Assembly: GCA_031556235.1 (NCBI GenBank)
Contig: JAVBTH010000001.1
Span: 140,982 to 204,981, forward strand
Length of the DNA: 64,000 nucleotides
Reading direction: 5' to 3'
Source of the DNA: Bacilli bacterium
Lineage (GTDB): Bacteria > Bacillota_I > Bacilli_A > RFN20 > CAG-826
The translations under genes were made by a program, and so were the position numbers. This document shows, one piece after another, positions 1,683-55,068 of the stretch (its first letter is position 1; the number at the start of each line of letters is the position of its first letter). Under the pieces are notes generated by a model. It was not told the origin of the DNA. It ran no database searches and saw only the letters and a list, made by a program, of their open reading frames with translations.

Positions 1683-1998
1683 TTTACTTTACCTCCTAAA
1701 ATAAAAACGACCCACATTTCTGCGAGTCGCTTGTTTATTCACTATTTTTTCTAGTGTGCAATAATCAACTCGCACACTAATCATATATTAACAATATCGT
1801 AGCGTAAGAGATAATTTTCCATGAAACCGCTTTTATTTTTCTATAAATATCTGTTCAATATTTCTTGGCATTTAATAAACTTTTTAGCGTTTACTGGAAT
1901 CGTATTATTAGTCAGTGCTAATTTGGAAAGAGAATCTTGCAAAATTGACTTTTACCCATTATTACATTATAATCTTTTCATAGTTTTGGAGGTAATTT

Positions 1999-2976
1999 AT
2001 GGAAAGAATATTGAGTGGCATTAAACCAACTGGTCAACTGACACTAGGCAATTATATTGGTGCATTAAAGAATTTTAAAGACTTTCAAAATCAAGGCGAA
2101 ACATTTATTTTTATCGCTGATTTACATTCACTAACTTTACCAATTGAGCCCGCTACACTTCGCACTAATTCGCGCGATTTAGCGGCGTTTTACCTTGCTT
2201 CCGGCTTGGATCCTGAAAAATGTACAATATTCTTACAAAGTCACGTATCTGCTCATTCGGAGTTAAATACAATATTACAGAACTACTTATATATGGGTGA
2301 ATTATCCCGCATGACTCAGTTCAAAGAGAAATCCGCAACATTAAATAACGACGCTATTGGATTAGGATTATTCGCGTATCCAGTTTTAATGGCTGCAGAT
2401 ATTTTACTTTACGATGCAACTATTGTGCCAGTGGGCGAAGATCAGACTCAACACGTTGAAATCACTCGTGACTTAGTCAAAAGATTTAATCATCGTTATG
2501 GCGATGTTCTCATCATGCCAAAGGCTGTTATAACTAAAGTTGGGGCACGTATTATGTCATTAAGCGACCCAAATAAAAAAATGTCTAAATCAGACCCTAA
2601 AGGTGATATATTTTTAAAAGATGATGAGACCACGATTAGAAAAAAAATCATGGCGGCCGTTACAGATTCTGAAGCTTGCGTTAAATATGATGTAACAAAT
2701 AAACCAGGAATCTCAAACCTACTAACCATTTATGCTTCACTAAAAGGTATCACACCACAAGAGGCTGAAAAATTATTTAAAGACGCTAGATATGGTGATT
2801 TTAAAAAAGCTGTCGCGGACACTGTCGTAGAAGAATTAATGCCATTCAAAGCTCGCTATGAAGCTCTTATTAATTCTGGCGAGGTTGATGCGGTTTTACA
2901 AAACGGCGCCATTAAAGCAAGAAAGATCGCTGATAAAGTATTAACTCGCGTAAAAAATGTTGTGGGTCTTCTTTAG
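1999..2976 (+). CDS. trpS: Tryptophanyl-tRNA synthetase (class I aaRS; KMSKS present)
   Basis: N-terminal GIKPTGQLTLGNYIG and a KMSKS motif; GGAGG SD. Confidence 0.9.
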   Translation: MERILSGIKPTGQLTLGNYIGALKNFKDFQNQGETFIFIADLHSLTLPIEPATLRTNSRDLAAFYLASGLDPEKCTIFLQSHVSAHSELNTILQNYLYMGELSRMTQFKEKSATLNNDAIGLGLFAYPVLMAADILLYDATIVPVGEDQTQHVEITRDLVKRFNHRYGDVLIMPKAVITKVGARIMSLSDPNKKMSKSDPKGDIFLKDDETTIRKKIMAAVTDSEACVKYDVTNKPGISNLLTIYASLKGITPQEAEKLFKDARYGDFKKAVADTVVEELMPFKARYEALINSGEVDAVLQNGAIKARKIADKVLTRVKNVVGLL

Positions 2977-3025
2977 TTTTTAAAAGATACACAGAATTTT
3001 TGCTACGCATTGAAAGGATTTACAC

Positions 3026-3835
3026 ATGAAACGTTATTTGATTGCCTTAGACATGGACGGAACATTATTAAACGACAAAGGAGAAATCTCCGACACAACT
3101 GCCGAGTATTTAAAACATTTAAATGAACTTGGTCATATCGTTGTCATCGCGTCTGGGCGACCAATTCGCTCAATTATTAAATACTATCACCAGTTAGGAT
3201 TAACAAGTCCAGTGATTTGCTATAATGGAGCTTCTATTCTCTCACCAAATGATAAAACTTTTGTGGAAAGGAATTTCTCTTTCCCAAACAAAGTCATTAA
3301 AGAGATTTATAATGATGTGGGTTCTAATCATATTGATAACGTCATGTGTGAAACAAACAAAGATATTTGGTTAATCCGCGAAGATGAAACGTTAAAGGAT
3401 TTCTTTTGGCACGATGGAATGAACGTCATCTATGGTGAGTTAGAAAAAATACTACATGAAAATCCCATGACGATGATAATAAAAAGCCATAGTACCGAGA
3501 GTGACCATTTAGTGGTTAAAGCCGTTAGTAGACATCCCGGAATTAAGGTAAGATTTTGGAATGGCATGTATGAATTATTTTCAGAAATCTATTATGAGCA
3601 CATTTCAAAAGCGGAAGGATTAAAATATATCGCTGATTTTTATAACATACCACACGATCAGACGATTGCATTTGGGGATGCCTGTAACGACATCGAAATG
3701 CTTCAGTTCGCCGGCATCGGGGTCGCAATGATTAACGGTGACGACACGATAAAAAAATACGCAAAAAGGATTACGCGTTTAGATAATAATCACGATGGAA
3801 TCATCGATGTATTAAAAGATATTATTCAAGAATAG
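3026..3835 (+). CDS. Cof-type HAD-IIB phosphatase
   Basis: LIALDMDGTLLND motif at the N-terminus and typical Cof C-terminal motifs (GDxxND). Confidence 0.85.
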   Translation: MKRYLIALDMDGTLLNDKGEISDTTAEYLKHLNELGHIVVIASGRPIRSIIKYYHQLGLTSPVICYNGASILSPNDKTFVERNFSFPNKVIKEIYNDVGSNHIDNVMCETNKDIWLIREDETLKDFFWHDGMNVIYGELEKILHENPMTMIIKSHSTESDHLVVKAVSRHPGIKVRFWNGMYELFSEIYYEHISKAEGLKYIADFYNIPHDQTIAFGDACNDIEMLQFAGIGVAMINGDDTIKKYAKRITRLDNNHDGIIDVLKDIIQE

Positions 3836-9590: not shown

Positions 9591-9681
9591 GGAGAAATAC
9601 CCAAGTGGCTGAAGGGGCTGGCTTGGAAAGCTAGTAGGCCTGTAACAGGGCGCGGGGGTTCAAATCCCCCTTTCTCCGCCA
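9591..9681 (+). tRNA. tRNA-Ser (anticodon GGA), type II with long variable arm and encoded CCA
   Basis: Hand-folded cloverleaf: acceptor GGAGAAA/TTTCTCC, anticodon loop TTGGAAA, T-arm GGGGGTTCAAATCCCCC. Confidence 0.9.
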
Positions 9682-9753
9682 TATTGCGCTCCATACGAAC
9701 CCCAAAGTAAGGTATATTTTAAAACTTCAGGTATCATTGGCATATATTTAAAA

Positions 9754-9783
9754 AGAGAATCAATGCATTGATTCTCTTTTTTG
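9754..9783 (+). terminator. Intrinsic terminator after tRNA-Ser (agagaatcaatg/cattgattctct followed by T6)
   Basis: Perfect 12-bp stem and T-run. Confidence 0.7.
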
Positions 9784-10030
9784 CTTTATAGTGCGATTTT
9801 TTTGTTGGGGAATCGCTTAATAATCGAACATAAGCGAAATATTAACAGTTTAACGATTACTCTGAAGTTAAGATTTTACCAATACTTAAGAGATTAAAAG
9901 AAATATCTCAAGAAGAATAATTAAATATTAAAACATCAGACTAATTAAACCCCTAGATAAAATCATTGATTATTGTATAATATATACAATTATTATTTTG
10001 TTTTGTAATAATTTAGAAGGAGAAAATAAT

Positions 10031-10702
10031 ATGAGTTTATTTAGGTTTTTACAAAAAAAAGATAAACCGACTTCAAATAATAATAAACAGTTAGAAAATG
10101 AAATTAGCATATTGTATAATGCTAAAAAATATGATGAGGTAATTTCTAAGGTGATCACTTTATCTGATGTAGAGCAAGAAGTTTCTTTGAAAAACAAGCA
10201 AATGCTCGCATTATCATATTTCTATAAAACCAATTATGTAGATTCATTAGCTGTTTTTAAAGAAATTGCAAAAAAGAAAAATGATGTAGAAAGCTGGTTT
10301 AATTGTTTAAATCCATTGCTCTTGCTAAAAAAAATGCAAGAGGCAAAAGAAGTTTTTACTATAATACTTAAATTGCATAAAGGACTTAATACTCAACAAC
10401 CACGAGAGTTAGGCTTGCCTTTTATTCGATATTATTACGCTTGGGGACTTAACGACGCTGGTTTATTTGAGGAAGCATTAGAACAATTAGAAGAATTAAA
10501 AAAAGTATATATAGCATTAAGAATTACAGATGATACATTTGTATATATTCGTGGAGTTCCATTCATTTCTAATACATTGGATTTAGCTAAAAAGGTTTTT
10601 GCTGGTTTAGGAACGGACTTAGCTAAATCGAACTATCTTAGAGAATTGAAAAGTAAAGTTGATGATAATGGAAAAATACTTATTAAAGCATACGAAAACT
10701 AA
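10031..10702 (+). CDS. Hypothetical protein, probably helical-repeat (TPR-like)
   Basis: ORF 9998..10702 trimmed to the ATG preceded by GAAGGAGAAAATAAT. Confidence 0.55.
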   Translation: MSLFRFLQKKDKPTSNNNKQLENEISILYNAKKYDEVISKVITLSDVEQEVSLKNKQMLALSYFYKTNYVDSLAVFKEIAKKKNDVESWFNCLNPLLLLKKMQEAKEVFTIILKLHKGLNTQQPRELGLPFIRYYYAWGLNDAGLFEEALEQLEELKKVYIALRITDDTFVYIRGVPFISNTLDLAKKVFAGLGTDLAKSNYLRELKSKVDDNGKILIKAYEN

Positions 10703-11008
10703 ATTAGTGTGGAAGTGACGAAGATTTATTGGCGCTTTATAATCTTAATAGAAAGGTACTTTAAAAACAAATAATCAGACTATAAAATTTCTTTTTTCCA
10801 AAATTAATTTGATATCTGCTTTTTAAATTTAAAAGCAATTATAGACGCAAAACAGATTAATTAATTCCTAATGCTTCAAATGGAAACCAGCTCACTCCGC
10901 CATTTACTTCAATATAAATACACTTAAAAAGGAATCTAATGAAGTGAACCCCAAATAGTTCACAATATAAAAAAGTGGTTTTTTGATTTCTTTATTTTAT
11001 TCTAGTGA

Positions 11009-12088
11009 TTAACCTACAAAAGAGAATTCAATAGATTTAATCTCGATTATTCCTTCTTCTCGTAATTCCTGAAAATCCAACTCTAGATATTGACATAGAT
11101 TTTTCACAATCTTATTATGCTCTTCTTCTCTTATGATGCCGCCATAGTTTGAATAATAGAAGGTATATTTAACTTTGTTTGAATCTTTGCCGTATTTTTT
11201 GAAAATAGACTTAAACAAATATAAGTCTTGTAAAGAAAATGAAGAACCATAAAACGCAATTCTGTCTATATTATTCTTAAGGATATCTGCCAAAATAGGT
11301 AAATGATTCCTACGCCTCCTATCTGATTTTGTAAATAAATCAAGATCATTAGATTTTTCGGAAATACCAAAAATGATATTTGCATCACTTAATCTGCCGT
11401 GGACATTTTGTATGTTATGTGCAGAACATTTTATATCTGTATAGTTAAAGGATATTATAGATAACTCTGCTGATTTTTGTTCGTTGCGAATAGTATGCAT
11501 AAGTTCTCTTTGCGAAGAAAAATATTGTTCACTTTGCTGTGAAATCAAATAATCCTTAAATCTCTCTTCAAAAACGTTTAGCTCTTGAAAAAGGTTCTGC
11601 ATTAACTCATCTTTTGAAACTTTAACAATCTTTAGTCTGCTTCTTGCATAACCGATATCTTGCACTTGCCAATTATCATTATTATAAAAACGCTCATTCA
11701 GGAAATAAGCAAAAAGCCAATGAGGAAAGTCTTCCCTGTGCCAGGCACCAGTTCTTTGAAAAGAGTTAATTGTATTCAAAACCTCATCCCAAATTTTTGT
11801 ATCAAATGAATCTTTAATCTCCTGTTCAACATCACACCAATTATTTCCATGTAATTTTTCTGATTTGGTCAGGAAGAGCAAATCCCAAACCGTAAAATCA
11901 ATGCTTTTAACGGCACTCATAACCGCATATTTTTGTTTTTCTTTAATCCCAACGTATATGTTGGAATTAAGAAAATCTTTATAGTCTTTTCTTTTTTTTG
12001 AATTTTCAAAAAAGTCATCATATGAAGATTTTAAACCACATTGTAAATCAAATCCATTTCCAATAATAAGCAATAATTTGTTTGCCAT
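11009..12088 (-). CDS. AbiH-like abortive-infection protein (N-terminal LLLIIGNGFDLQCGL motif)
   Basis: The GNGFD N-terminal motif and ~350-aa size are characteristic of the AbiH family; GGAGGG SD. Confidence 0.6.
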   Translation of the reverse strand: MANKLLLIIGNGFDLQCGLKSSYDDFFENSKKRKDYKDFLNSNIYVGIKEKQKYAVMSAVKSIDFTVWDLLFLTKSEKLHGNNWCDVEQEIKDSFDTKIWDEVLNTINSFQRTGAWHREDFPHWLFAYFLNERFYNNDNWQVQDIGYARSRLKIVKVSKDELMQNLFQELNVFEERFKDYLISQQSEQYFSSQRELMHTIRNEQKSAELSIISFNYTDIKCSAHNIQNVHGRLSDANIIFGISEKSNDLDLFTKSDRRRRNHLPILADILKNNIDRIAFYGSSFSLQDLYLFKSIFKKYGKDSNKVKYTFYYSNYGGIIREEEHNKIVKNLCQYLELDFQELREEGIIEIKSIEFSFVG

Positions 12089-12283
12089 AAGAATCCCTCC
12101 AAAACCTCTACAAGAATAGTAGTTAAATTTACTTCATATAAATTAATAAAATTCTAATTAAAAAATATAATCGCTTTTATTTTTTTTGCATTGCTTGTCG
12201 TAAAACCGACTCTTTAAAAAAACGATAGCAACTAACTCAACTAAGTTAAGTTTTCTTCAAGTTTATTTTCATTTTTTATTAAT

Positions 12284-12976
12284 CTATTTTATTGGCAAGA
12301 TCTTTTCAGCTTCTCTCGTTTCATAAATCATTTCAATCCAATGAACAGTAAGTCTAATTAGTCTTTTCAAATCTTCAATGTCTTTATCTGCAAACTTCTG
12401 AACATAATGAGTTTGATCATTTCCTAGCCAAACTGCACGACTTGCGGCAGTTTTCAAATTTGGGTCATTAACATATTCTTTAATACATTGACCTAATTGT
12501 GAGTTTTCAATTTTATCTTTTTTATCAGGATTTTCCTTTATAGAAAAATCTTTTATTAAAAACTCTAGAGCTTTTCTATAACCAATTCCCGCTATTTCAG
12601 TTAATTTGTAACTTTCAGAGGCTAAAGATTGATTAAAAATATTTACAAAGTCAGATGAAACTTCTTTAATAAAATCAGAAAAAATTGATTGCTCTGGTCT
12701 AACAGGGTCAAGAGACAACTGAATAGATGTATACCCTGTGAAATTGCCATTGAGATTAGTATTTCTAATTAATTTATTGTTAGCAATAAATGGATCGTAA
12801 CATTTTGTACAAAGATAGCAAATGCAGAGAAACTGATCTCCAGCAGTGTTCTTAAAATGCTTAACATTAAGTATACTAGGCTTTAGATTACACTTACAAA
12901 TTGGACATTTTTCCGGTTCTTCTACTACAACAGACGACGTTGAATTATCCAAATTAAAATTTACTCTTTCTTTCAT
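12284..12976 (-). CDS. Zinc-ribbon (CxxC x2) plus DUF4145-like domain protein
   Basis: CPICKC...CTKC cluster at the N-terminus; C-terminal AASRAVWLGNDQTHY resembles the DUF4145 core; start set at the ATG behind a GAGGTGA SD. Confidence 0.55.
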   Translation of the reverse strand: MKERVNFNLDNSTSSVVVEEPEKCPICKCNLKPSILNVKHFKNTAGDQFLCICYLCTKCYDPFIANNKLIRNTNLNGNFTGYTSIQLSLDPVRPEQSIFSDFIKEVSSDFVNIFNQSLASESYKLTEIAGIGYRKALEFLIKDFSIKENPDKKDKIENSQLGQCIKEYVNDPNLKTAASRAVWLGNDQTHYVQKFADKDIEDLKRLIRLTVHWIEMIYETREAEKILPIK

Positions 12977-13017
12977 TATTATCACCTCATTATTTTGAAA
13001 GTACATCCATCAACTAG

Positions 13018-13668
13018 TCACACAGCCTTCGTTTTTTTATTTGCCAAATCTATGATTTCATCATTCAATTCATTTATGCACTTAACCACATTTTGCTCTT
13101 TCTCGTAGAAAACCCAATTGCAAATTGTGTATAAATCATCATCAATGTCGAGTTCATAATATAATGAAATTCTTAAAATACATTGACCAAAGATAATCCT
13201 AAGTTCTACAAGAGCTCTTAAAATAATTATAGCAGCTCTTTCACTTATAGAAGGCATATCACAATAGGAATCTACAAGATTTTTAGATGCTAATTCATTA
13301 TAAAAATCTCTACAAGCTTTTCTCATAGTTTGAATGTTTGCTAGTAATACAGCATCAGTTGCTAAAAAGGATTTTTCAGTTAAAAAATCTCTAATATGTC
13401 TAATAGATATAACACAATGTCTTTCTTCAATTATTGCACAATCTATATAAAGCGCTCTTTTATCTTCAAGAAATCTAATAATTTCTCTAGCAAGTTGCCG
13501 CTGATTTGATTTATTATTCCACGTTATTCCAAATAAAGGAGTGCTTATCCCATTTATTGATCGAACTTTTTCAAAAATATCTTTGAATTTCACTTTTCTT
13601 CCCCCTATACTAATTTTATCTGCATCAATATCATAATGCAACACTATTTTTCTCATCCTTTTCATCAC
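13018..13668 (-). CDS. Hypothetical 216-aa protein, upstream partner of the DUF4145 gene
   Basis: ORF track; 41-nt gap to the downstream gene on the same strand. Confidence 0.55.
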   Translation of the reverse strand: MMKRMRKIVLHYDIDADKISIGGRKVKFKDIFEKVRSINGISTPLFGITWNNKSNQRQLAREIIRFLEDKRALYIDCAIIEERHCVISIRHIRDFLTEKSFLATDAVLLANIQTMRKACRDFYNELASKNLVDSYCDMPSISERAAIIILRALVELRIIFGQCILRISLYYELDIDDDLYTICNWVFYEKEQNVVKCINELNDEIIDLANKKTKAV

Positions 13669-13689
13669 AAATATTCATCTATAAAAAAT

Positions 13690-13732
13690 ACAGTGCCAAA
13701 TTATGTTTACAGTGCCAAAAAAATGGTATAAT
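13690..13732 (+). promoter_or_regulatory. Two direct repeats ACAGTGCCAAA (13690-13700, 13709-13719) followed by an extended -10 (TGgTATAAT, 13724-13732), upstream of fic
   Basis: Exact 11-nt direct repeat and TGnTATAAT read in the sequence. Confidence 0.35.
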
Positions 13733-13755
13733 ATAAATGTAAAGGGGTGTTCAAA

Positions 13756-14769
13756 ATGAGCGTCTTTGATGAATACAAGAAACTTGGAGAACCAAGCAAA
13801 AACGAAAAGGCGGCGATTTGGGAAACCGCAATAGGATTACAAGAAGTTGATGGTCTCACTCCTTCATCATATTTAATAGAAACAGCAAAAAATCATATTG
13901 AAGGTTCCATTACAATAACTGAAGTAAAAACGCGTCTTGAAGAGTACTATACAAAACATGATAACCGCAATGAAATTGAAAAGCGTACAGAGGAAGCCGA
14001 CAAAGTCTCAAGTCGGATTGCGGAGATATTATCAGAAAAGGCTTTCACATTTTCTCCTGCTGAGTACATTACAATTCATAAGAGACTCTTTCATGAAATA
14101 TACGAATTTGCTGGTAAAATTAGAGACTATAATATTTCAAAAAAAGAATGGGTATTAAATGGAGATTCAGTATATTATGCATCTGCAGATAGTATTAATG
14201 CCACACTCAATTATGATTTTGCTATTGAAAAAGAGTTTGATTATTCAAAAATATCAAAGGAAGAAATAATCGACCATATTTCTAGATTTATTTCAAACAT
14301 ATGGCAAATCCACCCTTTTGGAGAGGGAAATACGCGTACTACTGCAGTTTTTGCGATTAAGTATTTGCGCAAGCTTGGCTTTCATGTGAGCAATGAATTA
14401 TTTGCAAATAATTCATGGTATTTTAGAAATGCTCTTGTTCGCGCTAACTATTCTTTTGCGGATCACGGTATTTACGCAACAACAAAATATCTTAATCTCT
14501 TTTTTGAAAATCTAATATTAAAGAAAAATAATGTTTTAAAGAACAGAACAATGCAAATAGATTTTGGCACCGTAAATCAACAACATGACACTGCAAATGG
14601 CACTGTATTTGACTTAATTAAAAGTAATAATTCAATTACTGCCATGGAAATAGCTCAGCAACTAGAAATAAGTTTGCGCACTGTAAAGCGCAGAATAAAA
14701 GAGCTTAAAGAAATAGGACTTATGGAAAGAATTGGGTCGGATAAAAATGGAAGTTGGAAAATAAAATAA
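13756..14769 (+). CDS. Fic/Doc-family protein with a degenerate Fic motif (HPFGEGNTRTTA) and a C-terminal winged-helix HTH
   Basis: HPFxEGN core; C-terminal HTH (SITAMEIAQQLEISLRTVKRRIKELKE); start set at the ATG behind an AAGGGGTG SD. Confidence 0.8.
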   Translation: MSVFDEYKKLGEPSKNEKAAIWETAIGLQEVDGLTPSSYLIETAKNHIEGSITITEVKTRLEEYYTKHDNRNEIEKRTEEADKVSSRIAEILSEKAFTFSPAEYITIHKRLFHEIYEFAGKIRDYNISKKEWVLNGDSVYYASADSINATLNYDFAIEKEFDYSKISKEEIIDHISRFISNIWQIHPFGEGNTRTTAVFAIKYLRKLGFHVSNELFANNSWYFRNALVRANYSFADHGIYATTKYLNLFFENLILKKNNVLKNRTMQIDFGTVNQQHDTANGTVFDLIKSNNSITAMEIAQQLEISLRTVKRRIKELKEIGLMERIGSDKNGSWKIK

Positions 14770-14775
14770 CTTCAC

Positions 14776-14802
14776 AAAAAAACTCCCAATTGGGAGTTTT
14801 TA
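14776..14802. terminator. Bidirectional terminator (palindrome aactcccaattgggagtt flanked by A/T runs)
   Basis: Perfect 18-nt palindrome between convergent genes. Confidence 0.7.
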
Positions 14803-14825
14803 AACTATTAAATTCTTTAAAGAAA

Positions 14826-15422
14826 TTAAAGTTTTGCAAATCTACTTTTAAAATCATTAAGCGGTATAGTAACAGTTATAGTTTCTTTCGCGCTTGCTTT
14901 TGAAAATTCAAAAGTATAAGTAAAATCACTTGTAATATCAACAATCATCTTCTTTGGCTTATTACCCACGATAGCAAAATGATGCATCGTAAATGTTTCG
15001 CCTTCTTTTTTATTTTCTTCAAAGTAAGTTTGAGTCTCACCTTTATTGTTGTATGGAACAACAGTTCCGGAGATGGTTCCTCCTAACTCACCATTTTCTA
15101 TCTTAATGCCTGCGTCCAAGGCATTTTGAGGATCACCAATTAGCCATCCGTCAGTTGGCGATAACTTATGTTGAAGACTATCAAGTACAAATTCTTCTTC
15201 AACATTTTTGCTAATCGTCACTGAAACCACATACCACATAAGTGTTGTCGTATTTGATTCTTTATATTTAATAACTGAATTAGACAAAATCGTAAGAGTT
15301 GGAAGCCCTTGAGTTCCCATCGCCGTAAATTTTTCCTTACCACCACTACCTCCACAAGCTGTCACACAAACGGCAGTTGCAGCACAGGCAAATAATAACC
15401 CTGCAAATTTAAATTTTTTCAT
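14826..15422 (-). CDS. Lipoprotein (signal peptide plus lipobox VTAC)
   Basis: MKKFKFAGLLFACAATAVCVTACGGSGG. Confidence 0.75.
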   Translation of the reverse strand: MKKFKFAGLLFACAATAVCVTACGGSGGKEKFTAMGTQGLPTLTILSNSVIKYKESNTTTLMWYVVSVTISKNVEEEFVLDSLQHKLSPTDGWLIGDPQNALDAGIKIENGELGGTISGTVVPYNNKGETQTYFEENKKEGETFTMHHFAIVGNKPKKMIVDITSDFTYTFEFSKASAKETITVTIPLNDFKSRFAKL

Positions 15423-15644
15423 TTTTTCTCCCTTTAGAAATCGTCGATTTCTCTATTTATCCGTTTAATCGCGGAATACGAACATATGCTATCACTTACA
15501 AGATAATTATGCAATTACAAAATTATTAATGACCATATATTAATTCTTTTATAGTTGTAAATATTTCATCCAATCAAAAACACCCAAATTATTACGATGG
15601 GTGTTTAAGAATTTATATATTATAAATTGAATCTCTTACTAAAA

Positions 15645-16190
15645 TTATTTATCTTTTGTAAAGATGCCTTTTGCGGCATAAACCATTGGTATAACTGCAA
15701 AGATAAGCATATTAACGATTGATCCATAAATATTTGCAGTAAGTGTAAATTGGTTAGCATCTAACATACTAATGAATTGTTCTTTAGTAATGTTTCCGAT
15801 TGCTGGGATAGCAACGCCTGATGGCAATGCTTCAGCGGTCTTGTAGCCTGTTGTAATTTGATCTTGCGCATAATTTGTGTAAGCAGATCCATTAGTGAAA
15901 CTTAATATAGCAAAGACAAGCGCAATAACTGCAATTGTCATTAAAACATAGTTATTAATTTTTTTGCATTTTTCAATTGTTCCCAAAGTGCAAAAACTGA
16001 GTAATCCCACAAAGAATAGTTCTTGTGCAATTAGCATAAAGAACTTACTATTAGCAACTTTATCAGTGTACTCTCCTAATGTCACATCTTTAACAATGCC
16101 ATTTGATAAAAGTATTGTTGTTAATATAAGACCTACTAGGGCTACAACACCCATCGCAATTTTTGCCCAATGTTTTTCGATTAATTTCAT
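15645..16190 (-). CDS. Hypothetical membrane protein
   Basis: ORF trimmed to the Met behind AGGAGGAG; several TM segments. Confidence 0.55.
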   Translation of the reverse strand: MKLIEKHWAKIAMGVVALVGLILTTILLSNGIVKDVTLGEYTDKVANSKFFMLIAQELFFVGLLSFCTLGTIEKCKKINNYVLMTIAVIALVFAILSFTNGSAYTNYAQDQITTGYKTAEALPSGVAIPAIGNITKEQFISMLDANQFTLTANIYGSIVNMLIFAVIPMVYAAKGIFTKDK

Positions 16191-16300
16191 AACTTCTCCT
16201 CCTTTCATCTTATGCAAATATTGCAAAAGACAATTAGAGTATACTCCGCAGATATTGCGAAGTCAATCACTTAGTTAGTTAAACTAATTAATCTTGTATT

Positions 16301-16756
16301 TCATTCTAGTTGCGAGTCATTAAACAACTCGTTTAAGGTCTTAAGACCTTTATACATAACCTCTCGCTCTGTATCTGTGAGGTTTTTACAAACATTATCC
16401 ACCATTTTTTTGTGAAAATTAATATGCTCTTCATTGATTCTCTGTCCAAGTAATGTTAATTGCACAAAAGTGTTTCTAGCATCATTTTCGCATTTCTTCT
16501 TGCTTAAGTATCCCGATGCGACTAGTTTATTTACCATCACGGTGACACTTGCTAATGTAATATCAAACTTTTTTGCAATTTTACTAATTGTAATGGCATC
16601 GTCTTCACTAACTAATTCTATGAGGTGCATTTCGCGCATCGATAAGCTAGCTAATGTAACTTTATTAATCAACTTCATTTCTGTTTTTAATATATTGTGA
16701 AAAGTATCCACTAAAAGTAAGTTAAACTCCTCAATAAATTTTGAATTATAATCCAT
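16301..16756 (-). CDS. MarR-family transcriptional regulator
   Basis: Winged-helix MarR signature region. Confidence 0.8.
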   Translation of the reverse strand: MDYNSKFIEEFNLLLVDTFHNILKTEMKLINKVTLASLSMREMHLIELVSEDDAITISKIAKKFDITLASVTVMVNKLVASGYLSKKKCENDARNTFVQLTLLGQRINEEHINFHKKMVDNVCKNLTDTEREVMYKGLKTLNELFNDSQLE

Positions 16757-16845: not shown

Positions 16846-18891
16846 TTACCGATTAATGGTTTCATAGATACTTTTCGCTAACTGTTTCCAATCAGTGTCC
16901 TTATTTATAATAAACTTTTCGACATGGGAGTCTTTGCTTTGAACTTCAAAAACATCCCATCCAAATGTAATTATATTTCCATTAAAGTCATAAAGAAAAT
17001 GATCATTGTATCTACCGTGGTTTTCATCGAAATGCACCATCCCTGGTTTAATTATATTTAATTCGTATTCTAACACACATAAATGCACCTCATATATACG
17101 TCCCTTAGGTTGCTTATTTGGTATTAAAAAATAATTATCATCGCTATATAAAGGAGATTGACAAAATCTAAGGTGAGTCTCACTCATTGTTTTAAAGAGA
17201 TGTGGATAGTATATCATACAAAACCGCCAGTCATTAGAATCAATTACGTAACTAGTAATGATCTCTTCATAGTTTTTACCACTTAACAACTCATTTATAA
17301 GTGTTCTAACGATAGAACTATTTTGAGAGAATAGCTTCATTATACTAGGGGTCTTAGCTTGAACACTGTTATAATCAGGAAAAAAAGTCATCAAGTCTTC
17401 TGTCCTACCAGCTGATGTAGTGTAATCACCTATTGACAATAAAGCTCTCCTTAAACTCAATCCATCCTTAGGCCCCTTATCGTTAAAAATGTCTTCAATA
17501 ATTTTCCAGTTTCTTACGAAAATATCTGAGCAATAATTATTATTTTCATCCATTGAAATATATAACCCGCAACGAATTTGTCCGCGAAAATATGGTTGCT
17601 TTTCAGCATGATAAATTTGATCATTAAACTTCTCATTGCCTCCTAAGATTATATTAGCCTTTACTTGCTCTTCTTTGAATTGTTCTTTATCGAAAACAAA
17701 TACTTCATTTTTACTAATAAATTCTAATAAGTCTTTCGTATGAGTCGACAAATTATTAATTCCGAGAATAACTTTTTGAAACGTATCTTCTTTGTCAGTA
17801 AGAGAATTCTTAATGAGATTTTTTAATACTCTAAACCACTGAAAGAAATCTTTCTCCTCTACTAAGCCTTCATTATTGTACAAATACTGCGTCACGGCGT
17901 GTAATAATGCAAAATGTTCATTACTGGAGTCAATTTCTCCTACACAGGTTATGATTGATTTATACTCATCACTTATATTTTCATCACATAAAAAATCGAA
18001 CGTGTATTTTAGTATATCAAAAAAATTCTTATCAATCTTTTTATACCATTTACTGCTGACATTAAAGTTTTTCTCACTATAAGAAACATAATCATAATTA
18101 ACTAAAACATTACGTAAAAGTTTTAACAACACATCATCCGTATTTTCTTTATACTTATCCCAAAAATAATCTAGCCATTTACCATCAATGTTTATCTCAA
18201 AATCTTTACGATTTTGATACTTTAAAACAATCATTTGGTGAGACAAAATAGCCTTGAAGTTTTCATATTGAGTAAGCATTTTTCCTCGTGCATTAAGCTT
18301 GATATACAGACTATCCTCCATCCCTAGTTTTTCCATTTCTAAAAACTCAAAAACAACTTTATTGCCTATAAGAGCGCTTTTCAGTTTTTCTTCTTCTATT
18401 CCACCAAAAATAGTAACAATTTTTTCAAAAACTGCTATGGCAGATTGTACAGTTGGGTCAAACTCCCATCCATTTATAAACCATTCAGCGTCTAAAATAA
18501 AATCTCTAAATCTTTCTGACGAGAATACTATTTTTCTTTTTTCAACAATTCTTTTAAAGAATTCTCTAGAACTTATTCTTGTCTCATATGTAAACTTACT
18601 CAGCAATGATGTTTTCGTATCATCATTTCTAAAAGCAAAAATATTTAGCAAAAACAAAGTTGTAAGCCTTTGCTGCCCGTCAACTGGAACGAACCTATCA
18701 TTTTGTAACTTTCCATAAACAAAATTAAGATTAAGAGTATTTCCCTCGATAGCTGAAAAAATATCGTTAAGCAAATTATCACATACTACTTGTGCGTGCT
18801 TATCTTTTCGACCTTGTACATAGTCCCTTTGAATAATTGGGATTTCAATGGTATAATCATTTAATAATCCCATGAAACTTTTTTGCGCCAT
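16846..18891 (-). CDS. DUF262 (ParB-like nuclease/NTPase, DGQQRLTT motif) protein, 681 aa, with an unassigned C-terminal region and no clear DUF1524/HNH motif
   Basis: IQRDYVQ...VDGQQRLTTLFLL at the N-terminus; ATG at 18891 lies 1 nt after the stop of the upstream gmrSD-like gene. Confidence 0.7.
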   Translation of the reverse strand: MAQKSFMGLLNDYTIEIPIIQRDYVQGRKDKHAQVVCDNLLNDIFSAIEGNTLNLNFVYGKLQNDRFVPVDGQQRLTTLFLLNIFAFRNDDTKTSLLSKFTYETRISSREFFKRIVEKRKIVFSSERFRDFILDAEWFINGWEFDPTVQSAIAVFEKIVTIFGGIEEEKLKSALIGNKVVFEFLEMEKLGMEDSLYIKLNARGKMLTQYENFKAILSHQMIVLKYQNRKDFEINIDGKWLDYFWDKYKENTDDVLLKLLRNVLVNYDYVSYSEKNFNVSSKWYKKIDKNFFDILKYTFDFLCDENISDEYKSIITCVGEIDSSNEHFALLHAVTQYLYNNEGLVEEKDFFQWFRVLKNLIKNSLTDKEDTFQKVILGINNLSTHTKDLLEFISKNEVFVFDKEQFKEEQVKANIILGGNEKFNDQIYHAEKQPYFRGQIRCGLYISMDENNNYCSDIFVRNWKIIEDIFNDKGPKDGLSLRRALLSIGDYTTSAGRTEDLMTFFPDYNSVQAKTPSIMKLFSQNSSIVRTLINELLSGKNYEEIITSYVIDSNDWRFCMIYYPHLFKTMSETHLRFCQSPLYSDDNYFLIPNKQPKGRIYEVHLCVLEYELNIIKPGMVHFDENHGRYNDHFLYDFNGNIITFGWDVFEVQSKDSHVEKFIINKDTDWKQLAKSIYETINR

Positions 18892-18892
18892 T

Positions 18893-20440
18893 TTATTCCC
18901 CGCCTTTTTCAACAAATTGATTTATCATGTCCGCAAATGATTCAATATAGTCAGATTTATCAATATCTGTCCATTTATCCATTTGAGATTTCGTTATATC
19001 TTTTGTATACGCTTTAAGAAAAATATTCCTTGTGCAGAGCGGAAGAAATCTTCCATCTTTTCCGTATTGATTAATTATGACATTTCTTTTTTTATCAAAC
19101 GGTGAATCCTTACAACCTCGGTTAAGATCCGAGGATAATAAAGTAAGATTTCCTAAACTATCATCTTCCTCTTGCGTACCATCCGCACTAGCATGTATAT
19201 GATCGATATCCCACTTACCTTTTTTATATAACTTAAATGGAAATCTTGTCTCTTTAGCACTTTTACAATACAAAGTCGCAATGTTAAATAATAACAGCAT
19301 ATAACGTACTTTCTCTTTCTCGTCATAAGTTAGATTTGCTAATTTATCTCTTTCACTACAAAAACTTTTGTGCGTTTTTATTTTTTTAAATAATATTTTT
19401 GATACATCACTTTTTTTCTTTCCGGACAACTCTAACAAAAGCCTTCTCATATCTTCGCCTCTATCAATAACAAACCCAATCAGGTGATAATTGTCTACAT
19501 CATCGTACCAATAACATAAATCTCCATATAATTTTTCTATATCGTTCCAAAATGAAATTATGTATTCTTTTTTGCTGGGTATATCATTCATTTTTTTCGA
19601 AAAAGTTAAATAAGACCGACGACTATCGCTTTGAAGATTTTTGTCTAAGTATTTAGGTTGTAATGACAAAATGTCAAATAACACATCAATTCTTGTTCCA
19701 GTTTCATTTTCATCTGCATTGATTTCATTGTTAAAATAAGACCAAAAGTTATCATCTTGTAATCTCTGTTCTATCTTATCCCAAGATATAGAAATCTCTT
19801 TTTGTATAGCACCACTGTCAATTCCAAGATTGTCTTTGCTCAAAAGCAAAGCTTTAATAAGTTCTGCGTTAGTGAGTGGAATTTTTCCTAAATTCACTTT
19901 TTCAAACATTTCTATTGGCTGAACTTCTTCAGATATTTCGTACCAAATAAAAACTACACTCTTAAGAAATTTCGATACAATATCCCATAACACAACATTG
20001 GATGATGTTTTCTCTTTTGCAGCTAATTCCCGTGTCCACTCATTTATTACTTTTCGAGTAGAAGTTATGTGAAAATAATCTATATTACTATCATCGATTT
20101 CGCCATCTTCCTTTAATACGGTTAAGAATTCTTCACTGTTTTTTCTTGTATCAAAGGACAAGATAAACGGCTTAACGGATAGCTGCGTCGCAGTTTTTAG
20201 CAAAATAAATATCGTAGTTAGACGTTGTTGCCCGTCAACCACTTCCCATCTTTCACCTTTTTCCTTTACTATTAATGGTTGAATACAATATTCTAATGTT
20301 CCACCCTTCGTGTCAAACTCGTAAACGTCATCAAGCAATTCAACTACTTCTTTTTTTGTCCATCTGTAACCTCGTTGATACGAAGGAATAAAAAAAGACT
20401 TATCTAAAAGTTCACCAATTTTTACTACTTTTACTGACAT
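18893..20440 (-). CDS. GmrSD-family type IV restriction endonuclease-like protein (DUF262 plus DUF1524 His-Me finger)
   Basis: YQRGYRWTK...VVDGQQRLTTIFILL at the N-terminus; C-terminal WDIDHIHA...GNLTLL...N. Confidence 0.75.
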   Translation of the reverse strand: MSVKVVKIGELLDKSFFIPSYQRGYRWTKKEVVELLDDVYEFDTKGGTLEYCIQPLIVKEKGERWEVVDGQQRLTTIFILLKTATQLSVKPFILSFDTRKNSEEFLTVLKEDGEIDDSNIDYFHITSTRKVINEWTRELAAKEKTSSNVVLWDIVSKFLKSVVFIWYEISEEVQPIEMFEKVNLGKIPLTNAELIKALLLSKDNLGIDSGAIQKEISISWDKIEQRLQDDNFWSYFNNEINADENETGTRIDVLFDILSLQPKYLDKNLQSDSRRSYLTFSKKMNDIPSKKEYIISFWNDIEKLYGDLCYWYDDVDNYHLIGFVIDRGEDMRRLLLELSGKKKSDVSKILFKKIKTHKSFCSERDKLANLTYDEKEKVRYMLLLFNIATLYCKSAKETRFPFKLYKKGKWDIDHIHASADGTQEEDDSLGNLTLLSSDLNRGCKDSPFDKKRNVIINQYGKDGRFLPLCTRNIFLKAYTKDITKSQMDKWTDIDKSDYIESFADMINQFVEKGGE

Positions 20441-20527
20441 ATTTTTCCCCTTTGACTACGATTATAACAAAAAAAGCAGACTTAGTCATTGCTATGTCCA
20501 CTTTATTTGTTTTTTAAATTTAAATTA

Positions 20528-23266
20528 CTATTCTGATCTTAAGGCCACGACTGGATCCTTTTTAGCCGCGGATCTCGATGGGATTAGACCTGAGATCGTT
20601 GTTAAAAGAATACTTATTAGCATCATTGTAGCTGCATAACTTATTGGGAATTTTGCAATTGCAATACCGGTTAAGCCGTATACAATTAAGTTTATCAGCG
20701 CAGATAGTGCGTAAGTCACAGTAATACCAATCACGCCAGAGGCAAACCCAATCATGAAGGTTTCAGCGTTAAATAATCGAGAAACGTCTTTTTTACGTCC
20801 CCCTAACGAACGAATAACACCGATTTCTTTGATGCGTTCAACAACTGAAACATATGTGATGATTGCAATCATGACACATGAGACCACTAGAGCTAGTGAG
20901 GTAAAACCGACAAGAGCAATTGTTATAATGTTAATGAGACTATCAATCGTAGAAATAATTACTGCTAGATTATCCGTATAAGTAATAACATTTCTATCTT
21001 CATGTTGAACGACAACCCCATTAATTTCTAATGGAATATCTTCATTCCATTGATCTAAGTATTTGGTTACATTATCTTTTAAATCAAAGTTAGTTGGATA
21101 AATTGATATTTCATCTGGCAGAATAGATCCACCAAGTTGTTGCAATGTAATTGTATATGATTCTGGCATTTCTCCACCCATCATACTGCCAATCATACTT
21201 TCAATCATATTTGTTTTACCAATAAGACCAGTTTGAGTATATGTTGTAGAGTTATAGGAATAGTGATAATCATAAGTAATACCAGTTAAGATACTTCCTT
21301 TATAAGTTGTTCCTTGAAAGCCATCAAGCCCCGCGGTTGAAAGTGTAGTAACTATTTCGGAATTAATGTTTGTTTCGATGATTTTATCCGCTAAAGCTTC
21401 AGTATAGAAGAATCCACTTTGTAGTGCTCCAAAGTTTACAGTGCTCTTTGGTTGTAAAATACCAACAATTTTTAAAGGTAGTTTGCTAGCTTCAAAAGAA
21501 GCATCTGAGTAAGCTTTATAGGTAAATGGTCGAGTTTCTTGCAACATTGGAATCGTTTGTGCGGCAAATACTGTATCATTTGGATACCAATTGAATTCTC
21601 TTCCAAGCAATTCATCGTAAGTAAAGATTTCTTTATCCAAGTCTTTATCGTAATTGTCAACGTCATTACCAGCTTTTGCAATTAAGTTAACGAATTCATC
21701 TTGTGTGTAATACCCAAGTTGGGCAAGAAGTAAGTCAGTCAATAAGCTTCCTTTTTCAAGAACAATCATTACTTCATCTTCTTCGGTAGCAAATTTACCT
21801 TCCATGATGTCATATTGACTTAAAATATAATCTTCATTATTTGGTGATTGCATGAAGACATCACTGAGAGTCGTGATTAATGATGCATAATCGCTATAAG
21901 GAGTTTGTTTTAAAATTGAAGTATAAACAGTTCTCATCGCGCTTAGCGACATGTTTTCAACTGTACCACCTTCGCCAGTGAAATCAGTGTATATATTGTT
22001 TGTAATATCAATACCATAGTTGAAATAAATTGCCGCGGCATCTTCACTTGAAATACCTTTGACAAAATCAACATATTCTTGAGTGATTTCATTACTAATC
22101 ATCATTCCATCGGTCACTGTCGCGCGTTCGACAAGCATATCGATTAAAGAATCGACACCTATTTCTCTAGCCGCGGTTGTGGTTTGAATTTTTTCGCCAA
22201 TTGTCATCCCGTCCATCATCGCACTTAAATCTAAAGCAGTCTTGGAAATCTTAATTGGATATCCTGAAAGCATATCATTTTGCATGGTGTCTATATAAGA
22301 TTGGATACCATATGATATTGAAAGAACAAGCGAGACACCGATAATACCGATTGATCCCGCGATACTTGTCATAATTGTTCGCGCTTTTTTTGAGACTAAA
22401 TTATTTAAAGAAAGTCTAAAAGCAGTCCAGAAAGACATTTTAGCTTTCTCTTTTTTTGCAACACCAGTTTGTTTAAATTCTTCTTCAGCAATTTTTCTTA
22501 AAGCAGCATTTCTTTTCGCGGTATCTAATTTTTCAATTTTCAAATTGTAAGGATTACTATCGGAAAGTAATTCTCCGTCTAATAATTTAATAATTCTTGT
22601 TGAGTATTTTTCAGCTAACTCAGGGTTATGAGTAACCATGATGACGAGTTTTTCATGAGCAATTTCTTTAATAATTTCCATGATTTGAATAGAAGTTTCA
22701 GTATCAAGCGCTCCGGTTGGCTCATCTGCTAGTAATATTTCTGGATCATTAACTAACGCTCTTGCAATCGCAACACGTTGGCATTGTCCACCCGATAGTT
22801 GGTTAGGACGTTTATAATATTGATCAGTAAGTCCTACTCTATCTAAAGCTAGTTTAGCCTTCTTTTGGCGTTCAGATTTACTTAACCCCGCAATAGTAAG
22901 TGCCAATTCGACGTTACCCAAAACAGTTTGGTGAGGAATCAAGTTATAACTTTGGAAAATAAAACCTACGCGGTGATTACGGTAAACATCCCAATCTCTA
23001 TCGACAAATTCAGCAGTACTTCTGCCTGAAATTGAAAGATTTCCACTGGTGTATTTATCAAGACCACCAATGATGTTTAATAAAGTGGTTTTACCACATC
23101 CGCTTGGACCTAAAATTGAGACAAATTCGTTTTCTCTAAAAGCAAGATTAATTCCTTTTAACGCGTGAACTTCACTGTCGGCAACTTTATAATCCTTAAT
23201 AATGTCTTCTAATCTTAGCATATTTTTATCCTCCTTTACACTATCGTTTTTGACATTGACTATCAT
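20528..23266 (-). CDS. Fused ABC transporter: ATP-binding domain plus MacB/FtsX-type permease (912 aa)
   Basis: Walker [15 protein letters not shown] signature, C-terminal FtsX-like 4-TM domain. Confidence 0.8.
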
Positions 23267-23275
23267 GTTTTACAT

Positions 23276-23294
23276 ATGATACAATTCGTATCAT
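23276..23294. promoter_or_regulatory. Palindrome ATGATAC-AATTC-GTATCAT in the divergent ABC/TetR intergenic region (candidate TetR operator)
   Basis: Perfect 7-bp inverted repeat. Confidence 0.35.
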
Positions 23295-23394
23295 GTATCC
23301 ATGTGTCTGATACATAATGTACCACTATTAAATGTCGTGCGCAATGAAAATATATCAAAAAAAATATTATGATACAAAAAAGGAGATTTTGTAT

Positions 23395-23952
23395 ATGGAC
23401 AAACGTAAAGAAACTAACAGATTAGTTAAAGAAAGCATTACTGAAGCGCTTTTTGCTTTAATGTCTGCAAAAAATTTCTCTGATATTACAATCACAGAAA
23501 TAATTGAAAAAGCTGGTGTTGCACGTGTGTCTTATTATCGCAATTATAAGTCAAAAGAACAAATCATCCAAGATTGCGTATTTGACTTCATTCAAGTCTT
23601 CAAAGATAAAAATGTTATTCATTTCCACTCGAAACTCACTGAAGAAAAAGTCCAAGCAATATTTGAGTTAGTATATGGACAAAAAGAGCAATTAAAAATA
23701 ATTTTTAACGCTGGTCTTTCTGGACTCTTTTTAAACTCTTTAAATGCATATTTTGAGGAAATAAACTTTGGCGATAAAGAAATCGGCCCAACTAAACATG
23801 AAAAAAAGTGGATATTCTACGCTGCTTGTGGTGGATTTTTTAATATCATGGCTAAATGGATCATGGATGACTTTAAGGAAAACCCCCAAGAAATTATTAA
23901 ATCATTGATTCAAGGATGGAATGCTATTCAAAGTACGGAGTATAAAGCATAA
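23395..23952 (+). CDS. TetR/AcrR-family transcriptional regulator
   Basis: N-terminal HTH ITITEIIEKAGVARVSYYRNY; start set at the ATG behind AAGGAG. Confidence 0.8.
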   Translation: MDKRKETNRLVKESITEALFALMSAKNFSDITITEIIEKAGVARVSYYRNYKSKEQIIQDCVFDFIQVFKDKNVIHFHSKLTEEKVQAIFELVYGQKEQLKIIFNAGLSGLFLNSLNAYFEEINFGDKEIGPTKHEKKWIFYAACGGFFNIMAKWIMDDFKENPQEIIKSLIQGWNAIQSTEYKA

Positions 23953-51461: not shown

Positions 51462-51746
51462 AGTATTGTCCTCATCTCTTATTTCGTTGTATTACTTTTT
51501 AAGTTTTTATAATTATCCATCAACTTTTCTATTTTTTGCTTTCTTAAAAACGAAAACTCATTTTGTTTTCAAATTTATCGAGAACACGCTGCCATATTAC
51601 CTGTCTATGGCAAAGTAATCTAATAGTCTGCTGTGTGCCATGGACCAGTTAAATGATGAAATATCGCTCTCTGAAACTAGCAAAGCAACATATTTTTAGC
51701 AATTTTCATATCGAAAATTTTCATGATTTTATTGATTTTTTAATAA

Positions 51747-54025: not shown

Positions 54026-54388
54026 AAATACTGCTCCTTAATGCATTTTATTATTTACATGCTGCTTTATATTATTTTATTTGCTTATTCAGAATAGGCA
54101 ATTATTTTATGCTGCCACTTCATAATACAGTTGCTATCAAATTGTTGAATACTGATTTTCTACAATAAACAGCTATGTGACAATACTTTTATCTACTGTA
54201 AAGCAATACGACTGTCTCAACGTGTGCGGAGTTATAGAAATTGCTTTAAAAAATATTGCTGAGACTATGCAAGAGATATAGCATTTAAGTAATTAATTGA
54301 ACTCAAAAATAAAAAATTACTATATAATAAAAAAAATCAACTTTGAGAAATTGATTCTTTTTGGTAAAATATTAATGGTGATTAGATT

Positions 54389-55009: not shown

Positions 55010-55025
55010 AAGCACTATCAAATAA

Positions 55026-55056
55026 AAAACGACTTCAGTAAATAGTCGTTTTAAAG
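55026..55056. terminator. Bidirectional terminator (aacgact/agtcgtt stem flanked by A/T runs)
   Basis: Between the convergent HNH gene and the 395-aa gene. Confidence 0.6.
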
Positions 55057-55068
55057 TTTATATGCTTT

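Follow-up and report, generated by a model that had tools for sequence, protein, structure and literature searches.

Two closely spaced DUF262 genes on the minus strand

The 64-kb stretch of DNA analyzed here (the window) carries two neighboring genes on the minus strand, which we call A and B. Gene A (18893 to 20440) is grwA-like and encodes a 515-amino-acid (aa) protein with a DUF262 NTPase domain, a helical linker, and a DUF1524 His-Me nuclease, as assigned from Pfam and a match to GrwA. Gene B (16846 to 18891) is grwB-like and encodes a 681-aa protein with a DUF262 domain (PF03235, its only Pfam match), followed by a helical middle region and, at the C terminus, a conserved module; this assignment also draws on a match to GrwB. 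GrwAB is a two-protein anti-phage restriction system of Vibrio cholerae that cuts phage DNA containing modified bases (Nat Microbiol 2025; PMC12137116). The mechanically called open reading frame (ORF) of gene B is 689 aa long and begins with a TTG at 18915; we took gene B as 681 aa, beginning with the ATG at 18891, because homologues align to that ATG. Genes A and B each have hundreds of full-length homologues at 40 to 50% identity, so the ORFs are not due to chance.

We read the junction between the two genes (18892 to 18904, minus strand) directly from the sequence. The end of A contains a G-rich, SD-like stretch, GGCGGGG (18904 to 18898), followed by a TAA stop codon (18895 to 18893), a single A as spacer (18892), and the ATG of B (18891 to 18889). 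The 1-nt gap between stop and start reported in the initial annotation was thereby confirmed. The 87-nt gap that precedes A contains the sequences ATGACT and TG-TATAAT, separated by 17 nt (20461 to 20489, minus strand), which were identified purely by their match to the consensus. Since promoter and terminator sites are just as numerous in the region as expected by chance, we treat this site as a candidate operon promoter.

Gene A encodes a predicted GmrSD-type enzyme

Pfam searches of A placed GmrSD_N/DUF262 (PF03235) at residues 9 to 200 (E, 6.6e-33) and GmrSD_C/DUF1524 (PF07510) at residues 369 to 483 (E, 4.5e-07). The motifs PSYQRGYRWT, DGQQRLTT, and WDIDHIHA...GNLTLL...LNRG are all present, and the earlier description of this protein as a GmrSD-like combination of DUF262 and DUF1524 therefore stands, both for the motifs that it quoted and for the two domains. 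The DUF262 domain (19841 to 20416, minus strand; defined by Pfam and invariant columns) contains QR (Q22 R23), DGQQR (residues 69 to 73), and FxxxN (F179..N183). The core of the His-Me finger (19121 to 19201, minus strand) comprises H414, N431, and N440, for which conservation and comparison with GrwA give H431, N521, and N530 of GrwA as the equivalents; the two Asn residues are spaced by 9 in both proteins. Residues Q22, R23, D69 to R73, F179, N183, D411, H414, H416, N431, and N440 were invariant across 34 homologues. Judged by its sequence, the product of gene A is a GmrSD-type enzyme whose predicted DUF262 NTPase motif set and DUF1524 His-Me nuclease are both intact.

Gene B combines a DUF262 domain with a C-terminal module that has no fold match

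The sole Pfam domain in B is GmrSD_N (PF03235) at residues 9 to 216 (E, 2.3e-21). This domain (18244 to 18867, minus strand; defined by Pfam and alignment) includes Q21 R22, DGQQR (residues 71 to 75), and YxxxN (Y196..N200), with R75 as the counterpart of R86 in GrwB. The initial annotation had ascribed the same DUF262 motifs to both proteins. This holds for DGQQR, but the first motif of B reads IQRDYVQGR and not YQRGYRW as in A.

The approximately 460 aa that follow the DUF262 domain matched no entry in Pfam, NCBIfam, PADLOC, or the PDB. The C-terminal 461 aa and 296 aa had no Pfam match even at an E value of ≤10. B as a whole had no match at all in PADLOC, one sub-threshold match at chance level in NCBIfam (E, 0.009; 15 bits, with a cut-off of 253), and matches confined to DUF262 in sequence and profile searches of the PDB. 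The C-terminal module (residues 386 to 681; 16849 to 17736, minus strand) was delimited by conservation and an AF2 model, and it contains the motifs EEQxKA, AExHxYFxGQIR, LLRRALLxxGDYT, DWR, SHLRL, and PNK. The model is confident (pLDDT, 91.6; pTM, 0.89) and has no Foldseek match at an E value of <0.001 in the PDB or BFVD. When we used hhalign to look for a hidden DUF1524 by comparison with the A family, the probability was 0.6%. Together, the Pfam searches at an E value of ≤10, hhalign, the PDB searches, and Foldseek rule out a DUF1524 domain or other nuclease concealed in B. The C-terminal part of B had been described at the outset as lacking a recognizable nuclease, and neither these sensitive searches nor structure prediction altered that description.

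A profile of the C-terminal module recovered 1157 cluster representatives. Among 100 long representatives bearing the module, 98 had DGQQR near the N terminus. These sequences indicate that the module is nearly always preceded by a DUF262 domain. It retains a few invariant charged motifs across phyla, whose residues are concrete targets for mutagenesis.

Genes A and B match GrwA and GrwB, respectively

In the V. cholerae system, the first gene encodes GrwA, with DUF262 and DUF1524, and the second encodes GrwB, with DUF262 and unknown domains (PMC12137116); grwA (268547 to 270358) and grwB (270358 to 272823; protein accession no. AWB73058.1) overlap by 1 nt (bioRxiv supplement). We compared our proteins with the first 399 aa of each V. 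cholerae protein, as given in the bioRxiv supplement. Over these regions, A was 38% identical to GrwA across 373 aa (E, 7e-73; 224 bits), versus approximately 31 bits for GrwB, and B was 37% identical to GrwB across 285 aa (E, 2e-40; 139 bits), versus 36 bits for GrwA. By sequence comparison, A and GrwA, and likewise B and GrwB, are reciprocal best matches. With the proteins of Streptococcus ilei, a published family member, residues 9 to 393 of B were 37.6% identical to GrwB over 391 aa (E, 4e-74; 234 bits), and A matched GrwA with 243 bits.

Since the V. cholerae GrwB sequence used comprised the first 399 aa, homology of the C terminus of B rests on GrwB relatives that are 61 to 67% identical. 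A database search with the V. cholerae GrwB fragment recovered relatives up to 67% identical but not the V. cholerae protein itself. Those at 61 to 67% identity matched the hidden Markov model (HMM) of the window B C terminus at positions 52 to 362 of 422 (E, 1e-34 to 1e-37), and BLASTP aligned residues 5 to 492 of window B to one of them. The last ~70 aa of B did not align to these relatives. A B protein from another locus (L030), 48% identical to GrwB, scored 154 bits against the window-type C-terminal HMM. By way of such relatives, the homology of B to GrwB appears to extend past DUF262 into the C-terminal module.

Neither GrwA nor GrwB alone gives protection. GrwA H431A and N530A abolish defense, N521A is strongly impaired, and GrwB R86A abolishes defense, the DGQQR arginine being needed in GrwA and GrwB alike (PMC12137116). 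GrwAB, expressed in E. coli, restricts phages whose DNA contains glucosyl- or arabinosyl-hmC or 7-deazaguanine; escape phages carry mutations in the modification enzyme DpdA, and the phenotype during infection differs from classical abortive infection (PMC12137116, PMC12409362).

The window pair resembles GrwAB in having the nuclease-bearing gene first, in tight coupling (a 1-nt overlap in V. cholerae and a 1-nt spacer in the window), in the domain plan of both proteins, and in the conservation of all tested catalytic residues. It differs in several respects. The window proteins are 37 to 38% identical to those of V. cholerae. A has 515 aa compared to 603 for GrwA and lacks an insert of ~70 aa that long, mostly proteobacterial GrwA-type proteins carry after the catalytic His and before the Asn pair. 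B has 681 aa compared to 821 for GrwB (140 aa shorter), with several loops shortened. The substrate range could therefore differ from that of GrwAB, given the missing insert in A and the shorter B. Finally, the chromosome carrying the window pair is Firmicute-like and low in GC, and no Shedu gene adjoins the pair. Firmicute members are already included in the published family list (PMC12137116). On sequence evidence, we regard the pair as a divergent, compact copy of the known GrwAB; its architecture is not new, having been described and tested in 2025. We concluded that A and B very probably make up a single operon for a modification-dependent (type IV) restriction system of the GrwAB family, with two protein components.

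The A-then-B arrangement is conserved across phyla

In all 75 related loci for which upstream sequence was available, B was immediately preceded by an A-type gene in the same orientation. The loci represent Bacillota, Bacteroidota, Pseudomonadota, Campylobacterota, Spirochaetota, and other phyla, so a search for the two-gene arrangement in other genomes, as proposed in the initial annotation, found it widely. The homologue lists of A and B share contigs, as in Clostridium butyricum DORA_1, with tags ...G0020 and ...G0021. At the junction, a 4-nt overlap was commonest (20/75), and 65 of the 75 junctions fell between −28 and +31 nt.

The two proteins could instead be independent type IV paralogues, each with its own specificity, that became adjacent through tandem duplication. 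Both contain a DUF262 domain with intact QR and DGQQR, and the single-protein enzymes GmrSD, BrxU, and HEC-06 work alone. However, the region common to A and B is the DUF262 domain only, at ~27% identity, which argues against a recent duplication. The invariable gene order and coupling in the 75 loci, and the failure of GrwA or GrwB alone to protect, also speak against independence. The initial annotation had offered two independent paralogues or a two-component system. The former is unsupported because B has no nuclease, and we consider it highly improbable; the latter is favored by the conserved arrangement and by homology to GrwAB.

A related explanation is that B is a decaying or nonfunctional paralogue of A that has lost its nuclease, leaving what is effectively a single GmrSD enzyme. 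B does lack DUF1524, and a few related loci (L035, L040, and L075) have split genes. Against this, the 681-aa ORF is uninterrupted, and it is conserved over its full length, including the C terminus; an alignment of 120 sequences has 64 invariant columns. Moreover, the C-terminal module alone recovers its 1157 representatives and is modeled with confidence, and the R86A mutation shows that GrwB is needed for defense. A check of B for decay thus found an intact gene; the decay explanation is largely refuted here, and we give it almost no credence.

Comparison with other GmrSD-like systems

We also considered TgvAB, a two-gene GmrSD-like system encoded by VC1767/VC1766 in VPI-2 of V. cholerae, which targets glucosyl-hmC (J Bacteriol 2024; PMC11411939). 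TgvAB follows the same logic as the window pair: it is a two-protein, GmrSD-like type IV system in which one DUF262 partner has no nuclease, the other combines DUF262 with DUF1524, and both proteins, as well as both DUF262 domains, are required (PMC11411939). However, the DUF262-only gene, tgvA, comes first in that system, whereas the nuclease gene comes first in the window. According to the authors of the GrwAB study, the nuclease-free partners TgvA and GrwB are distinct outside DUF262, with different C termini (PMC12137116). In addition, the TgvAB genes lie within a type I restriction-modification cluster, and the system has a narrower range, restricted to glucosyl-hmC. Given the reciprocal matches to GrwA and GrwB, we consider it very unlikely that the window pair is a TgvAB-type system.

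A shares its DUF262 domain, helical linker, and DUF1524 His-Me nuclease, with the same motifs, with Eco94GmrSD, BrxU/HEC-05, HEC-06, and SspE. These single-chain enzymes act alone, typically as homodimers, whereas A is paired with B in 75/75 loci, and the match of A to single-chain GmrSD models from PADLOC and the PDB was limited to its first 80 to 250 residues. It is conceivable that the two DUF262 proteins serve as accessory nucleases in a larger modification-based system, as SspE does alongside SspABCD phosphorothioation and BrxU alongside BREX. A weakly matches the PADLOC SspE and BrxU-type models, in the N-terminal DUF262 domain only, and PDB profile matches to SspE likewise cover DUF262 only. 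However, no ssp genes (including sspABCD), dnd genes, or BREX genes were found in the 64-kb window among the matches listed (25 of 47 Pfam families; 52 flanking ORFs), the immediate neighbors were heterogeneous across 80 loci, and B has no PADLOC match. We therefore regard an accessory role as extremely improbable.

Proposed roles of A and B

For a GrwAB-family system, translational coupling would supply A and B in matched amounts, and the two would join in a hetero-complex. The single nuclease, which is located in A, would be gated as both DUF262 domains bind or hydrolyze NTP. The middle and C-terminal regions of B would then supply what A lacks, most likely recognition of modified DNA, or else control or assembly of the complex. 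B may in this way act as a sensor or regulator. Unmodified host DNA would be spared, so the locus would need no cognate methyltransferase.

Our tentative suggestion for the middle and C-terminal part of GrwB (the last 296 aa in window B) is that it might have a previously unclassified fold and read hypermodified bases or allosterically license the GrwA nuclease. If the module does serve as such a reader or switch, the compact Firmicute form (A, 515 aa; B, 681 aa) would come close to the smallest core with which a hetero-oligomeric type IV enzyme can work. Three observations on the GrwB C-terminal module go slightly beyond the published description: a confident model for which no structural relative was detected, a position nearly always behind DUF262, and the retention of its invariant charged motifs across phyla. 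The locus is a compact, low-GC addition to a defense family recognized only in 2025, and its short form may suit structural work.

Genomic neighborhood

A MarR gene (16301 to 16756, minus strand) lies 89 nt downstream of B; its presence after the pair on the same strand had been pointed out initially. MarR was conserved with the pair in 0 of 80 loci and was ruled out as a component of the system. We found no third gene conserved with the pair in these loci.

Both A and B are labeled just "DUF262 domain-containing protein" in current annotation, and PADLOC v2 overlooks B entirely. An Rfam scan identified tRNA only. Other defense genes near the locus encode AbiH and a Fic-HTH protein that matches the PADLOC candidate PDC-S72. 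The locus lies in a small chromosomal defense island adjoining tRNA-Ser.

Organization of the gene pair

Two long minus-strand ORFs lie in a region of 31% GC. The upstream ORF, gene A (18893-20440, minus strand), encodes a 515-aa protein with GmrSD_N/DUF262 at residues 9-200 (Pfam E value, 6.6e-33) and GmrSD_C/DUF1524 at residues 369-483 (Pfam E value, 4.5e-07). Its sequence contains the motifs PSYQRGYRWT, DGQQRLTT, and WDIDHIHA...GNLTLL...LNRG. The NTPase motifs (Q22 R23, D69-R73, and F179..N183) and His-Me residues (D411, H414, H416, N431, and N440) are invariant in an alignment with 33 homologues. A mechanical ORF listing started gene B (16846-18891, minus strand) at TTG 18915; alignment with homologues placed the start at ATG 18891, giving a 681-aa protein. 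The junction reads TAA (18895-18893), A (18892), ATG (18891), and a G-rich stretch lies 7-13 nt 5′ of the ATG. DUF262 at residues 9-216 is the sole Pfam match of gene B (E value, 2.3e-21). There was no match in PADLOC and a single chance-level match in NCBIfam (E value, 0.009), far under the cutoff. A MarR gene (Pfam) lies 89 nt 3′ of gene B. The initial annotation had proposed a DUF262-DUF1524 protein with these motifs, a 681-aa gene B starting 1 nt past the gene A stop, and a MarR gene after the pair. We conclude that the locus is real and was described correctly.

The pair belongs, by sequence, to the GrwAB family

GrwAB is a two-gene type IV anti-phage restriction system of Vibrio cholerae. 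Its plan is that of the window locus, with GrwA (DUF262 plus DUF1524) encoded first (PMC12137116). Neither protein is dispensable; the DGQQR arginine of each and the His-Me residues are needed as well, and defence depends on phage DNA modification (PMC12137116, PMC12409362). Defence was abolished by GrwA R81A, H431A, and N530A and by GrwB R86A, and was strongly reduced by GrwA N521A (PMC12137116). GrwAB is active against Tevenvirinae (sugar-hmC), Queuovirinae (7-deazaguanine), and a subset of Markadamsvirinae; phages that escape are mutated in DpdA, and homologues occur in ~1% of complete genomes (471 hits) (PMC12137116, PMC12409362). The published hit table covers Firmicutes (Streptococcus ilei, Roseburia intestinalis, and Clostridium intestinale, among others).

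V. cholerae GrwA (603 aa) and GrwB (821 aa), whose gene coordinates have a 1-nt overlap, were compared through the first 399 aa of each (bioRxiv supplement). Using BLASTP, we found that window A matched GrwA (38% over 373 aa; E value, 7e-73; 224 bits, versus ~31 bits for GrwB), and window B matched GrwB (37% over 285 aa; E value, 2e-40; 139 bits, versus 36 bits for GrwA). The S. ilei proteins gave ~39% over 425 aa for GrwA (E value, 6.7e-79; 243 bits) and 37.6% over 391 aa, residues 9-393, for GrwB (E value, 4e-74; 234 bits). Membership in TgvAB, a second V. cholerae two-gene GmrSD-like system, is disfavored: its DUF262-only gene comes first in V. cholerae (PMC11411939), whereas the nuclease-bearing gene comes first at the window locus, and window A and B match GrwA and GrwB, respectively.

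For the GrwB C terminus, we seeded a search with the 399-aa V. cholerae GrwB fragment (best match, 67% identical). Relatives with 61-67% identity to V. cholerae GrwB matched an HMM of window B residues 250-681 with E values of 1e-34 to 1e-37, spanning HMM positions 52-362 of 422. The B protein of one related locus, L030 (48% identical to GrwB), scored 154 bits with this HMM, and window B residues 5-492 aligned to a Pseudoalteromonas GrwB homologue by BLASTP. Hence, homology to GrwB covers most of the "unknown" C-terminal region; the last ~70 aa are the sole part left unaligned to GrwB relatives.

Window A is 88 aa shorter than V. cholerae GrwA, mostly because the catalytic His is followed by the Asn pair with no insert in between (H414-N431 spacing of 17 residues, compared to ~90 in GrwA). 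Window B is 140 aa shorter than GrwB because several loops are reduced. Firmicute-type pairs have an A protein of ~510 aa and a B protein of ~675 aa. Long-type, mostly proteobacterial pairs (L020, L043, L053, L058, L061, and L071) have an A protein of ~600 aa, with an insert of ~70-90 aa at that position, and a B protein of ~800 aa. Bacteroidota-type GrwB is ~660 aa, and the terminal beta subdomain (beta-sheet) is missing in at least L027 (L027:7971-9947). The long A homologues follow the published GrwA numbering, with an Arg at ~81-96, a His ~340-350 residues on, an Asn ~75-90 residues past that His, and another Asn 9 residues beyond. Judged by sequence, the window pair is a compact Firmicute-type member of the GrwAB family, ordinary rather than exceptional.

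Gene B is conserved and has a distinctive C-terminal module

The initial annotation had allowed that gene B might be a degraded paralogue, a reading that is disfavored. In a database search, the best 120 of thousands of homologues were 669-704 aa long, with 37-44% identity and 83-100% query coverage. There are 64 invariant columns over the whole length (120 sequences), including, in the C-terminal half, W352, R354, N362, F400, Q404, E407, E408, K411, E430, F435, G437, W462, R481, T491, W555, R556, and R575. AlphaFold2 modeled the full-length protein with a pLDDT of 89.3, and the last 296 aa alone with a pLDDT of 91.6 and a pTM of 0.89. We conclude that gene B encodes a conserved protein and is no wreck.

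A canonical DUF1524 domain in gene B, the other initial reservation, was not found. The C-terminal region had zero Pfam matches, even at an E value of ≤10. In profile-profile comparison of the two families, DUF262 alone aligned (B 8-219/A 9-202; probability, 97%; E value, 2.5e-11), and the last 296 aa of gene B gave nothing against the gene A family (probability, 0.6%). PDB profile matches were confined to DUF262 of 20yv, 9jfl, and SspE. A profile of the C-terminal module (residues 386-681) matched 1,157 proteins at an E value of ≤0.001 among 1.84 billion cluster representatives, nearly always at ~residues 400-720 in proteins of 650-850 aa. DGQQR lay within the first 200 residues in 98 of 100 matches of ≥600 aa. 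The module thus appears to be exclusive to the GrwB architecture. Similarity searches assign it no function, and its role is the remaining interest of the locus.

A conserved two-gene pairing of A and B

The gene A and gene B match lists have contigs in common (e.g., adjacent tags G0020/G0021 in Clostridium butyricum DORA_1). A scan for gene B relatives, with one genome per species, gave at least 568 loci. We fetched 80, called ORFs, and scored them with HMMs from the gene A and gene B alignments. The two-gene arrangement, which the initial annotation had proposed seeking in other genomes, recurred throughout: an A-type gene that includes the DUF1524 part lay directly 5′ of B on the same strand in 75 of 75 loci with upstream sequence, and B was at a contig edge in the remaining 5. 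A 4-nt overlap was the commonest junction (20/75), and 65/75 junctions fell between −28 and +31 nt; outliers reflect over-extended start calls or MAG-split A genes. The loci come from Bacillota, Bacteroidota, Pseudomonadota, Campylobacterota, Spirochaetota, Verrucomicrobiota, Planctomycetota, and others.

That A and B are independent paralogues is disfavored by this invariable order, by the lack of a nuclease in gene B (Pfam at an E value of ≤10, PDB profiles, and profile-profile comparison), and by the GrwAB precedent, in which neither grwA nor grwB alone protects (PMC12137116). An SspE- or BrxU-like accessory role is likewise disfavored, since no further gene consistently accompanies the pair across the 80 loci and the 127 immediate neighbors are heterogeneous (most commonly HsdS [5], Fic [5], resolvase [3], and ResIII [3]). 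MarR was rejected as part of the module (0/80 loci).

Among the 80 loci, the sole exceptions to intact pairs were three MAG loci with the grwA or grwB frame split into two ORFs (L040:6185-7986, L075:6155-7977, and L035:7875-10405). These may be frameshifts, pseudogenes, or assembly errors.

The pair has one nuclease, in A, two intact sets of DUF262 NTPase motifs, tight coupling, and obligatory co-occurrence. We propose that A and B would form a hetero-complex whose nuclease, in A, is gated on modified DNA by NTP turnover in the two DUF262 domains, and that the B C-terminal module may supply recognition or control.

Genomic context

The window is chromosomal (enolase, iPGM, SAM synthetase, aminoacyl-tRNA synthetase, and MgtE genes). 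The stretch from tRNA-Ser(gga) (9591-9681) to the pair (9591-16756) has a GC content of 27-31%, compared to 32-37% on the flanks. It carries AbiH (11009-12088; Pfam E value, 7e-23), DUF4145 (12284-13006), DUF6650 (13018-13668), and Fic-HTH (13747-14769; PADLOC candidate PDC-S72; E value, 5e-130) genes and, between Fic-HTH and MarR, two ORFs without a match (14826-15422 and 15645-16226). No integrase was seen in this stretch, which resembles a small defence island. No methyltransferase adjoins the pair, compatible with a modification-dependent enzyme.

In an Odoribacter MAG, of a phylum unrelated to the window's, a Fic-HTH protein (L025:839-1921) 52% identical to that of the window is encoded directly 5′ of grwA (1992-3707). 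Of the 127 flanking ORFs, 5 are Fic-domain genes. Either recurrent co-location or a mere defence-island effect could account for this.

Directly 5′ of the window's grwA, 20528-23952 holds a 912-aa ABC ATPase/FtsX-type permease fusion and a divergent TetR regulator. The PADLOC mad3 match of the fusion (E value, 3e-32) probably reflects the ABC ATPase domain only. A second low-GC patch (50382-57205; 26-29%) has restriction- and modification-type genes: a 359-aa ORF without a match (50382-51461), a half-size specificity protein resembling HsdS (51747-52277), an N6 DNA methylase that PADLOC matches to type IIG/type I models (52277-54025), DUF5677 (55069-56256), and Nmad3 (56351-57205; PADLOC candidate PDC-S34).
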